From the sequence record OR539220.1: a stretch of 64,000 nt of DNA, one strand, 5' to 3'. How positions within the stretch are numbered: position 1 is the stretch's first letter; each line of letters begins with the position of its first letter. Below the pieces are notes generated by a model. The model was given only the letters and a program-made list of their open reading frames with translations, did not search any database and was not told the DNA's origin. This document shows, piece after piece, positions 37,102-38,956 of this stretch. Source of the stretch: Escherichia phage vB-Eco-KMB40. A program made the translations under genes and the position numbers.

Positions 37102-37962
37102 TTATACCGCCATCTTTCCTTTAATTGGCGGGTGAGATACATAGTTGTTAAGAACGAAATCTTTAGGTCTAAGTTTAAGAACATATTTTAATTGTTCTTT
37201 AGTAGAAAGATATCGGAATTTATAAGGTAGACCACTTATTACCAGCTCACAAAGCTCTTTAGGTTCACGCCTCAATATTTCTTTACACTGTTCTACGTGA
37301 TTCATATAGATATGAGTATTACCACCAGAAAATATCAAATCTCCTGGAATAAGATTACACATCTTAGCTACAATATGAACTAACGTAGCATATGATGCAA
37401 TATTAAATGGAAGACCGAGAAAAACATCTACCGAACGTTGATACCACTGCAAATCCAAATAGCCATTACGCACATTAAACTGATAGAACATATGACAAGG
37501 CGGTAATGCCATATATTTAAGTTCAGCTGGATTCCATGCTGAAACAATTTGACGCCTATCATTTGGCAGTTTTTTAATACGATCAACAACTTCTATAATT
37601 TGGTCTACACCACCAAAATCACGCCACTGTTTTCCATAAATTGGACCAAGTTCACCGCTATGGTATCCTAAATCTTTTGCTTGATTTTCGTAATTTTCAT
37701 CCCAGACTGTTTTGCCTTGAATTAATGAATCATGCTGAATTAATCGTAAATCATTGACATTTGTGCTTCCTGATAAAAACCAAAGCAGCTCAGCAATGCA
37801 AGCTTTCCAAGCGAGCTTTTTAGTTGTTACTGCAGGAAAACCTTTGGTTAAATCCCAACGCAATTTAGTACCGAACAAAGCAATTGTTCCTGTGCCTGTT
37901 CGGTCATCGGTTTCATAACCATTTTCAAAAATGTCTTTAATTAAATCTTGGTATTGTTTCAT
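37102..37962 (-). CDS. td: thymidylate synthase, contiguous (no intron)
   Basis: 286-aa uninterrupted ORF; MKQYQDLIKDIFENGYETDDRTGTGT... Confidence 0.95.
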   Translation of the reverse strand: MKQYQDLIKDIFENGYETDDRTGTGTIALFGTKLRWDLTKGFPAVTTKKLAWKACIAELLWFLSGSTNVNDLRLIQHDSLIQGKTVWDENYENQAKDLGYHSGELGPIYGKQWRDFGGVDQIIEVVDRIKKLPNDRRQIVSAWNPAELKYMALPPCHMFYQFNVRNGYLDLQWYQRSVDVFLGLPFNIASYATLVHIVAKMCNLIPGDLIFSGGNTHIYMNHVEQCKEILRREPKELCELVISGLPYKFRYLSTKEQLKYVLKLRPKDFVLNNYVSHPPIKGKMAV

Positions 37963-37965
37963 TTA

Positions 37966-38372
37966 GTACCTTATATAAATTATAATACATTTTATGAAGC
38001 TAATAATTAATATGGTTTAGCATCAAATTTTCTTTCGATTTCAGGAGTGAAATATAATTCTTTACCGCGTTTAGAAAAGCGACCAATAATATGATAATTA
38101 TTCTCATCAAACGTAATATTGCCAATATCCATGGCTTTCAACCAAATATCGATATTTCTATCCAGTTTTATATCAAAATTCCAATACGGAGAACTATTAC
38201 CGAAAATACTGCAAGCGGATTCAGTGAAACAACTACTATAAATCTTGTCTTTAGGAACTACTAATTGATAGACGCCTTTAATAAACTGAGGACCCTGCCA
38301 TTTTGGTTGTTTTGCGTCTTTTTCTAATAGAATAGGGTAATAATTAAAGTTCATATTTTCCGCCACGCGTTA
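37966..38372. other. 407-bp inserted cassette at frd/td junction flanked by 9-bp direct repeats
   Basis: TTTCATTTA at 37957-37965 and 38373-38381; frd stop overlaps a remnant ATGAAATAA; contains 115-aa ORF. Confidence 0.5.
38007..38354 (-). CDS. hypothetical protein (ORFan inside frd/td insertion)
   Basis: 115 aa from ATG 38354 (supplied ORF uses GTG 38366); no motif recognised. Confidence 0.5.
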   Translation of the reverse strand: MNFNYYPILLEKDAKQPKWQGPQFIKGVYQLVVPKDKIYSSCFTESACSIFGNSSPYWNFDIKLDRNIDIWLKAMDIGNITFDENNYHIIGRFSKRGKELYFTPEIERKFDAKPY

Positions 38373-38374
38373 TT

Positions 38375-38956
38375 TCATTTATACACTGATTCCGTAAGGG
38401 TTGTTACTTCATCTATTTTATACCAGTGGGTTTCAACCATTTCACGCTTGCTTATATCATCAAGAAAACTTGCATCTAATTGAACCGTTGAATTAACACG
38501 ATGCCTTTTAACGATGCGAGAAACAACTACTTCATCCGCATAAGGTAATGCAGCATATAACAGAGCAGGCCCGCCAATTACACTTACTTTGGAATTCTGA
38601 TCAAGCATAGCCTCGAATGGTGCATTAGGGCTTGACACTTGAATTTCGCCACCAGAAATGTAAGTTATATATTGCGCCCAAGTAATATAGAAATGTGCTA
38701 AATCACCGTCTTTAGTTACAGGATAATCACGCGCAAGGTCACACACCACAATATGGCTACGTCCAGGAAGTAATGTAGATAATGACTGGAACGTTTTAGC
38801 ACCCATAATCATAATTGTTCCTTCGGTACGAGCTTTAAAATTCTGGAGGTCCTTTTTAACTCGTCCCCATGGTAACCCATCACCTAAACCGAATGCTAAT
38901 TCATTAAAGCCTTCGACTGTTTTAGTTGGAGCATAAGCAAATACTAATTTAATCAT
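38375..38956 (-). CDS. frd: dihydrofolate reductase
   Basis: 193 aa; matches T4 DHFR as recalled. Confidence 0.95.

Follow-up and report, generated by a model that had tools for sequence, protein, structure and literature searches.

The genes frd and td of Escherichia phage vB-Eco-KMB40 (OR539220.1, of which a stretch of 64,000 nt, the window, was analyzed) are separated by a 115-codon open reading frame (ORF). This raises the question whether a gene was gained at this junction or lost from it in other phages. In T4, frd and td overlap by ATGA with nothing between them, as the initial annotation of the window had correctly stated; that annotation took the ORF for a recently acquired ORFan. 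The best explanation of the locus as a whole, with a probability of about 0.75, is that the ORF is an old gene, td.1, that the states of the frd-td slot arose by differential loss and that T4 carries a deletion.

Organization of the frd-td junction

All features of the junction lie on the minus strand. The gene frd (38375..38956) encodes a dihydrofolate reductase of 193 aa and shares 95.7% nucleotide identity with T4 frd. It ends in GTG TAT AAA TGA, and the stop TGA is overlapped by an ATG at 38378-38376 (ATGA), which is followed by AAA TAA. The resulting two-codon mini-ORF ATG AAA TAA (38378-38370) belongs to the left copy of a repeat (38370..38381), in which the 9-mer TAAATGAAA occupies positions 38373-38381 and extends to TAAATGAAAtAA. 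A 20-nt spacer, AAATAACGCGTGGCGGAAAAT (38355..38374), contains a weak purine-rich ribosome-binding region and precedes the td.1 coding sequence (38007..38354, 115 aa plus stop), which starts with ATG; an alternative GTG start at 38366 in the ORF listing would give 119 aa. The spacer measures 19 nt in some relatives (L007, L009 and slur13) and is absent from locus L031, where the frd stop is overlapped by the td.1 ATG itself. The 3' end of td.1 is overlapped by an eight-codon mini-ORF, ATGCTAAACCATATTAATTATTAG (38000..38023), and the td.1-td spacer harbors a promoter-like element of 31 nt, TAGCTTCATAAAATGTATTATAATTTATATA (37972..38002). The right repeat copy (37954..37965) has TAAATGAAA at 37957-37965, extends to TAAATGAAAcAA and is identical with the start codon context of td (37102..37962). 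The latter encodes a thymidylate synthase, starts with ATGAAACAATAC at 37962 and runs uninterrupted through 286 codons; the group I intron and I-TevI, both present in T4 td, are missing. All statements on the sequence itself in the initial annotation could be reproduced, namely the frd end, the ATGA overlap, the ATG AAA TAA remnant, the 115-aa ORF, the td start and the presence of TAAATGAAA at both ends.

Identity and conservation of td.1

The 115-codon ORF is almost certainly the known and ancient gene td.1 and not a recent insertion. It is already annotated as a widespread hypothetical gene, and the T2H record AY262132.2 names the same 348-nt gene td.1. The Td.1 protein matches the profile of PHROG 1928 (E 8.4e-36, residues 4-111 of 115) as well as 38 representative clusters at 50% identity. 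Megablast found the ORF covered in 354 of 518 Tequatrovirus-type records, and tblastn retrieved 554 phage records, 362 of them at least 90% identical and a further 192 less than 60% identical. Together with the GenBank name in T2H, these matches contradict the designation as an ORFan. Carriers include T2, T6, RB27 and RB3, in which the ortholog is unnamed, as it is in RB32 (ORF229c) and AR1. No paper mentioning td.1 was found in the open-access literature.

Homologs with 30-66% identity adjoin the 3' end of frd in Mosigvirus, Kanagawavirus, Jiaodavirus, Moonvirus and Marfavirus, and in 20 of 20 loci examined from other genera the homolog starts no more than a few nucleotides from the frd stop. 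The Mosigviruses PTK, AlbertHofmann and Shf125875 also contain td.1. Between the window and the Mosigvirus alleles, td.1 shares 87.6% nucleotide and 94% amino acid identity, with 86.6% nucleotide identity in frd, and the dN/dS of td.1 is 0-0.04. Judged from these comparisons, td.1 codes for a protein, is conserved and evolves under strong purifying selection; across the T4-like subfamily it lies immediately 3' of frd. Its homologs occupy the slot directly 3' of frd in at least six genera, their divergence runs parallel to that of frd, and the T4-type junction is rare (32 records), all of which speaks against a recent acquisition. The view of td.1 as a variable accessory gene was borne out. At short evolutionary range it is under tighter constraint than its enzyme neighbors. 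This constraint, together with the lack of an assigned function and of a recognizable fold, makes it a reasonable target for work on T2- and T6-specific biology.

States of the frd-td slot and a probable deletion in T4

Several genera hold a three-gene array between frd and td. At loci L031, L010/L011 and L005/L013 the full interval consists of td.1, a tandem td.1 paralog, a basic ORF of 68 aa (orf68) and then td, and the ATG of each gene overlaps the preceding stop (ATGA or TAATG). The paralog shares Q16, W19, G27, Y29, G91, F93, K95, G97 and F102 with Td.1 and also matches PHROG 1928. In Tequatrovirus three states of the slot occur: td.1 only (the window, T2, T6 and RB27) in about two thirds of the records, orf68 only in about one quarter, and an empty slot in T4 and a few close relatives. 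The orf68-only allele is found in ESh28 and fFiEco06, among others (about 135 records at at least 90% identity). Across genera in which frd is 45-48% identical, orf68 shares 78-84% of its amino acids; this conservation beyond that of its neighbors might be due to horizontal spread and not to ancestry. The eight-codon mini-ORF ATGCTAAACCATATTAATTATTAG matches the start of the tandem paralog in L031/L032 (ATGCTAAACCTTATTAAG..., MLNLI...) and is probably the vestigial start of a lost paralog. However, it is held in place by the td.1 coding constraint, so this match is not independent evidence. The slot states probably arose by differential loss from the array, with the ATGA overlap of T4 as the fully reduced end state.

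In a BLAST comparison of the window with T4 two blocks were obtained, whose overlap in T4 is precisely the 9-mer. T4 thus equals the left flank, one 9-mer and the right flank, and lacks one copy together with the 407 bp between the copies. Among the 32 records with the T4-type junction, 31 are identical over a 54-nt probe. In neighbor-joining trees built from frd and from exon 1 of td, which are small trees of short and visibly recombining sequences, T4 and F1 nest within the td.1-bearing Tequatroviruses and are not sisters. The close outgroup Dhakavirus QL01 is also devoid of td.1 and shows the direct frd/td overlap, which implies that td.1 was lost more than once or that the empty allele was moved by recombination. 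The most likely polarity is loss in T4 and not gain in the window phage; since deletion and insertion would yield the same T4 sequence, this direction rests on parsimony and the small trees. The T4 state is probably the product of a deletion across the 9-mer. In the T4 lineage, 416 bp would have been removed between the two TAAATGAAA contexts, by slippage during replication or by microhomology recombination, which joined the stop of frd to the start of td and kept the translational coupling. On this reading, a deletion in another lineage used the repeat as its substrate, and the repeat was not left as a scar by an insertion in the window. The T4 overlap, familiar from textbooks, appears to be rare and derived, and is an unsafe baseline for calling insertions in relatives.

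A sizeable but somewhat smaller chance falls to the possibility that td.1, orf68 and the empty junction are old alleles, which T-even phages exchange during co-infection through ordinary homologous recombination in frd and td, and that td.1 reached the window phage by such exchange rather than by strict vertical descent. Co-conversion during homing of the td intron about 550 bp away could have assisted, as co-conversion of flanking sequence is established in homing (PMC2988022). The trees of frd and td are incongruent and the slot state follows neither, the 5' end of td in ESh28 is Dhakavirus-like, and the td intron occurs in combination with each of the three slot states. However, such exchange accounts for the distribution of the states and not for their origin, and it therefore complements the deletion model without replacing it. 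The association of the empty slot with the intron comes from a 60-row sample, in which three of three empty-junction rows had an interrupted td: the two T4 rows contain the intron, and in F1 td is split. An exclusive link between absence of td.1 and the intron was rejected, as 79 records contain both td.1 and the intron and the intron accompanies all three states.

The nine-nucleotide repeat

The two copies of TAAATGAAA are spaced by 416 nt, and their similarity reaches 12 nt with one mismatch. T2H, slur13 and IMG/VR loci share the left motif, which takes the form AAAATGAAATAG in Mosigvirus alleles. In the 64-kb window TAAATGAAA occurs nine times, against 3.8 expected from shuffles, and three of these nine copies head ORFs of at least 100 aa. 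The 9-mer is a generic gene-start context of stop, ATG and AAA. The same 551-bp stretch also contains a second pair of identical 9-mers and a repeat of 20 nt whose copies are 80% identical; neither has any meaning. The 9-mer therefore really delimits the indel in the comparison with T4, but on its own it is no signature of transposition. Two further readings were considered and rejected. TAAATGAAATAAC occurs three times in the window and might have marked a recurrent cassette boundary, but its other two occurrences (15279 and 60096) are away from gene ends. The mini-ORF ATGAAATAA is in frame with td.1 and might have been a disabled original td.1 start, but its frame is not conserved, since the spacer is 19 nt instead of 20 nt in L007, L009 and slur13.

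The initial annotation had offered either a target-site duplication or a microhomology junction. The 9-bp microhomology at the indel boundary stands, whereas a target-site duplication is disfavored: a repeat search found no terminal inverted repeats at the cassette ends, and the sole ORF of the cassette has no Pfam or NCBIfam domain; neither a transposase or integrase nor a nuclease was detected. In addition, an unrelated ORF of 68 aa fills the identical slot elsewhere with the same ATGA/TAATG overlaps. The empty site is also not the common state, with 32 T4-type records compared with about 354-362 that carry td.1.

It is improbable that a T4-like ancestor with the frd/td overlap gained td.1 as a cassette, by transposition or illegitimate recombination, with duplication of 9 bp including the td start and ATGAAATAA as the decayed copy. 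The left copy does resemble the td start over 12 nt, with a single C-to-T change that creates the stop, the junction is empty in T4 and Dhakavirus QL01, and the left junction of Tequatrovirus and Mosigvirus contains 23-24 extra nt (ATGAAATAACGCGTGGCGGAAAAT) without counterpart in L031. However, the 9-mer is a common start context, no transposon ends, transposase or nuclease were found, empty junctions are few and uniform in sequence, and homologs that diverge in step with frd fill the slot in the other genera. Moreover, the ATGAAATAR remnant is common to the td.1 alleles of Tequatrovirus and Mosigvirus, between which dS is about 0.9. The remnant hence predates the split of these alleles, so that any insertion event cannot have been recent. 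T-even genomes with the ORF but without the ATGAAA remnant had been named in advance as evidence against insertion, and this evidence came out half against it: both the ORF and the remnant are present in T2 and T6, whereas the more distant L031 carries td.1 without the remnant. The left junction is no clean relic of the array, and an old rearrangement that copied the td start could explain why the two resemble each other over 12 nt (ATGAAAyAA).

Predicted structure and function of Td.1

The conserved motifs of Td.1 are Q16-x-K-W19 and G91-R-F-x-K-x-G97-x4-F102; only W19, G91, K95 and G97 are invariant in the alignment. No match was found in Pfam (E <= 10), NCBIfam or PADLOC, and two profiles searched against PDB sequences returned noise only (E > 0.1). 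The AlphaFold2 model has a pLDDT of 92.3 and a pTM of 0.85. It showed no significant structural match in the PDB, and its fold matches in BFVD were exclusively uncharacterized proteins of other T4-like phages. In agreement with the statement that the ORF lacks a recognizable catalytic motif, the alignments contain no GIY-YIG, HNH or LAGLIDADG motif. The model hints at a small beta-barrel whose strands and helix follow the order of an OB-fold, without catalytic motif. As a tentative guess, Td.1 might be an accessory factor that binds nucleic acid or protein and is produced along with the nucleotide-precursor enzymes. It may be dispensable in T4 under laboratory conditions.

That td.1 is a free-standing homing endonuclease spreading by cutting td.1-less junctions is very improbable: five BASEL-collection records (MZ501066, MZ501089, MZ501046, MZ501047 and MZ501067) annotate a putative homing endonuclease and the presence/absence polymorphism adjoins a homing-prone gene, but the protein has only 115 aa, matches no domain even at E <= 1-10, contains none of the nuclease motifs, finds no nuclease among the fold matches to its pLDDT-92 model and shows a deep, co-divergent synteny unlike that of a mobile endonuclease gene.

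Predicted expression of td.1 and td

We infer that td.1 shares a transcript with frd and that its translation begins at its own ATG (38354). The Tequatrovirus alleles may in addition provide td with a MotA-type middle promoter in the 44-nt spacer. The MotA box has the consensus (a/t)(a/t)(a/t)TGCTTtA, located 12 +/- 1 bp from the -10 element TAtaaT (PMC2988021). Positions 37977-38000 fit a relaxed form of this pattern, with GCTTCA, 12 nt and TAATTT. The putative MotA box ATTAGCTTCA contains one mismatch and lies 12 nt from TAATTT; a better TATAAT is only 10 nt away. The 31-nt element is present as a single copy in the window and is conserved in Tequatrovirus td.1 alleles, but absent from those of Mosigvirus. 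A scan for sigma-70 promoters and terminators gave nothing above shuffle expectation and did not flag the element, and RNA folding of the td.1-td spacer revealed no hairpin (z = 0.1). The proposal that the insertion supplied td with a new ribosome-binding site is not supported, as the sequence ...ACTAA(A)TGAAAC before td is common to phages with other alleles.

Comparison with known systems

Like the seg/mob homing endonuclease genes of T-even phages (PMC2988022), td.1 is a small intergenic gene that is present or absent between phages and lies beside nucleotide-metabolism genes. Unlike them, it lacks a nuclease domain or fold and holds an ancient, co-diverging position.

The closest counterpart is td.1 of T2H (protein ABI48932.1), which shows 100% amino acid and 98.9% nucleotide identity to the gene in the window, in an identical layout with a 20-nt spacer after frd and 45 nt before td. 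There is no material difference between the two genes.

T4-type genomes carry variable accessory ORFs at gene boundaries, a plastic periphery that includes mobile promoter/stem-loop cassettes. The slot in the window resembles these in its position between core genes, its alternative small ORFs and its promoter-like 31-nt element, but it lacks a stem-loop and the element is not repeated in the window. Instead of unrelated shuffled cassettes, its content looks like the differential retention of one old array. The slot illustrates how small genes of T-even phages are lost or swapped exactly at overlapping stop and start codons with translational coupling unbroken.

The classic rII deletions of T4 have their endpoints in short direct repeats. 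The T4 frd/td junction likewise corresponds to the T2-type sequence from which one copy of the repeat and the intervening 407 bp have been taken out. It differs in that the direction here comes from comparison, and in that the repeat doubles as a stop/start signal, so that the product of the deletion is still coupled.

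The frd/td.1/td junction

On the minus strand of the window, frd (dihydrofolate reductase, DHFR; 38956..38375, 193 aa) ends in GTG TAT AAA TGA, and the ATG overlapping its stop codon (38378-38376) continues with AAA TAA. A 20-nt spacer leads to td.1, an ORF of 115 codons with an ATG start (38354..38007), and after a further 44 nt follows td (thymidylate synthase; 37102-37962), which starts at 37962 (ATGAAACAATAC) and runs through 286 codons without interruption. The 9-mer TAAATGAAA is present in two minus-strand copies 416 nt apart (38381..38373 and 37965..37957), and a repeat finder extended this repeat to 12 nt with one mismatch. 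The initial annotation described this junction accurately and also stated correctly that frd and td overlap directly in T4 (NC_000866), where the overlap is ATGA and the junction reads ...CAGTATATAAATGAAACAATACC.... BLAST comparison of the window with T4 yielded one block for frd and one for td, whose overlap in T4 is exactly the 9-mer. As judged from this alignment, the 9-mer repeat is the boundary of an indel relative to T4. At the other end of frd the alignment stops at the start of the gene, and the genes upstream (38958-39745, minus strand) are unlike those of T4: a 124-aa ORF without a Pfam match (38958-39332) abuts frd where T4 has frd.1 (DUF5417), and a DUF7247 ORF is located at 39386-39745.

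td.1 is an annotated accessory gene

A megablast search with the junction retrieved 518 phage records, 354 of which covered the ORF, including T2, RB27 (98.8% identical), RB3/5/6/7/9/10 and PP01. By tblastn, td.1 was detected at 90% identity or more in 362 records, T6 and AR1 among them, and below 60% identity in 192 further records from Klebsiella, Citrobacter, Enterobacter and Raoultella phages. In the GenBank entry of T2H (AY262132.2), precisely this gene is named td.1, and its spacers are those of the window. The td.1 product matches PHROG 1928, a family of unknown function (E 8e-36), and 38 clusters, nearly all single-domain and of ~95-140 aa, were retrieved when 1.8 billion representative proteins were searched with a profile. 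Thus, the supposed ORFan is an accessory gene that had already been annotated.

Differences to T2H (3) and to the compared locus L006 (17) are all synonymous; slur13 and L007 show 16 synonymous and one nonsynonymous difference, the Mosigvirus alleles ~34 and 9, respectively. This synonymous excess results in a dN/dS of 0-0.04. By this pattern of substitutions, td.1 is a real gene under constraint. The ATG at 38354 is its conserved start; in Mosigvirus the upstream GTG reads CTG.

An AlphaFold2 model based on 43 homologs (pLDDT 92.3, pTM 0.85) predicts strands at residues 6-12, 27-34, 48-50 and 62-64, a helix at 68-76 and strands at 80-82, 86-96 and 99-104. Matches in BFVD were only uncharacterized proteins of T4-like phages (Pectobacterium PM2, Serratia Muldoon, Erwinia Cronus, Aeromonas Ah1/phiAS5). 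Our best guess, held with low confidence, is that Td.1 may be a small OB-like binding protein that is co-made with DHFR and thymidylate synthase. In GenBank records, td.1 orthologs carry the name putative homing endonuclease (MZ501066, MZ501089, MZ501046, MZ501047, MZ501067, OR271596; a label used in BASEL-collection records) or putative glucose-1-phosphate adenylyltransferase (PQ571308, OR125554); no domain or fold result supports either name. The 195-aa NCBI protein P0012 is chimeric: a part matching a phage nucleotidyltransferase (PHROG 388; residues 1-161) is joined to a Jiaodavirus-type td.1 C-terminus (the final 34 residues), which suggests that another gene broke into td.1 in some Klebsiella phage.

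Age of the arrangement

The td.1 homolog always starts within a few nucleotides of the frd stop in Kanagawavirus (L002), Jiaodavirus (L003), Moonvirus (L004), Marfavirus (L005) and 16 IMG/VR loci. The Moonvirus homolog uses as its start codon the ATG within the ATGA at the end of frd (GTGTATGTAAAATGA). In three Mosigviruses (PTK, AlbertHofmann, Shf125875), td.1 is 94% identical to the window at the amino acid and 87.6% at the nucleotide level, compared to nucleotide identities of 86.6% for frd and 75.7% for td; td.1 thus diverged in step with frd. The left junction of Mosigvirus retains the remnant as AAAAATGAAATAG, so that the arrangement predates a divergence of dS ~0.9. A single additional A in front of the ATGA moves the stop of Mosigvirus frd (L027/L028/L030, 594-1211) and adds 12 codons; the resulting 205-aa DHFR gene shares 11 nt with the start of td.1, and the td.1-td spacer comprises 13 nt only. 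This age, together with the common slot across genera, speaks against a recent acquisition with a fresh scar.

The 9-mer does not carry a transposition signature either, as would be expected for the proposed target-site duplication. TAAATGAAA is an ordinary stop/start context (stop codon, ATG, AAA), occurs nine times in the window (3.8 expected) and heads ORFs of at least 100 aa in three of these nine cases. The same 551-bp junction stretch harbors a second exact 9-mer repeat and a 20-nt repeat at 80% identity, both meaningless, and a repeat search in it found no inverted repeats flanking the td.1 segment.

A 31-nt element in the td.1-td spacer has no second copy in the window; Tequatrovirus alleles conserve it, and Mosigvirus alleles lack it. 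Under a relaxed middle-promoter pattern it is a putative promoter (ATTAGCTTCA, 12 nt, TAATTT); the middle-promoter consensus is (a/t)3TGCTTtA, 12 +/- 1 bp from TAtaaT (PMC2988021). A sigma-70 scan detected no -35 element in it, and RNA folding no hairpin in the spacer. The context ACTAA(A)TG directly before td is shared with alleles carrying another ORF, orf68, and with the distant metagenomic relative L031; it is not a new RBS.

Slot states and the td intron

In a sample of 60 spread records, searched with an artificial query without ORF and intron, three size classes were found at the junction, with sample counts from our own tally: td.1 (+416-417 bp; ~39 records, 354-362 overall), orf68 only (+206 bp; 11 records, ~135 overall at 90% identity or more) and an empty, T4-type junction (+0 bp; T4 twice and vB_EcoM_F1, 32 overall). 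The overall counts add up to ~518, the number of records carrying the locus.

The window td is intronless, whereas T4 td is interrupted by a 1-kb group I intron that carries I-TevI. The insertion site is ~550 bp from the frd/td junction, and the bases around it (window 37413-37421) failed to align with T4. Slot state and intron are not exclusively associated: td.1 and a T4-type intron co-occur in 79 records, and the intron was seen with all three slot states in the 60-record sample. All three empty-junction rows had an interrupted td, a number too small for a conclusion. vB_EcoM_F1 (L026, 2796-4362) has a T4-type junction, and its td annotation covers just exon 1; small ORFs and a divergent exon 2 (73% aa identity) come after it. 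UPWr_E2 (H151) carries ~320 bp of extra DNA in td besides orf68; this may be an intron that lacks the endonuclease gene.

A probable ancestral array and its proposed loss in T4

The 206-bp allele (ESh28, fFiEco06) encodes a basic 68-aa ORF (orf68, PHROG 9550) unrelated to td.1; its start codon is the ATG within the frd ATGA, and its TAA overlaps the td ATG. It is the alternative slot occupant in ~135 Tequatrovirus/Dhakavirus records; it is located at 896-1102 in both L023 and L024 and at 3170-3379 in L031. Across genera orf68 is 78-84% identical at the amino acid level, while frd reaches only 45-48%; this unusual conservation might reflect transfer. Outside the T4-like phages, homologs at 43% occur in Phapecoctavirus.

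Kanagawavirus, Moonvirus and Marfavirus encode a td.1 paralog of 113-119 aa that separates the td.1 homolog from td (L002 1817-2176, L004 1787-2134, L005 1790-2143; L031 2832-3173). It matches PHROG 1928 (E 5e-36), shares Q16, W19, G27, Y29, G91, F93, K95, G97 and F102 with td.1, has an extra segment after the QKKW motif and overlaps the td.1 3' end with its first codons. The paralog start is probably kept in the window as an 8-codon stub (38000-38023). In L031, whose td.1 is 63% identical to that of the window, frd, td.1, paralog, orf68 and td are all linked by ATGA overlaps; the full array is also found in L010/L011 and Marfavirus (L005/L013).

Both deep frd branches contain td.1. In small trees of frd and td exon 1, genes that recombine, T4-type phages nest among td.1-bearing Tequatroviruses and are not mutual nearest neighbours; empty junctions are identical over 54 nt in 31 of 32 records. 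The most economical reading of these comparisons is that the array of td.1, paralog and orf68 was ancestral, that lineages differ in the members they retained, and that a 416-bp deletion between the two TAAATGAAA contexts removed the last one from the T4 lineage. However, the Dhakavirus QL01 junction is empty too, and the left junction of Tequatrovirus and Mosigvirus has 23-24 nt without counterpart in L031, because of which an older rearrangement may have occurred there. Under differential retention with deletion, T4 would represent the derived, gene-less state, and a deletion from start to start would preserve the ATGA coupling, exactly as in T4.
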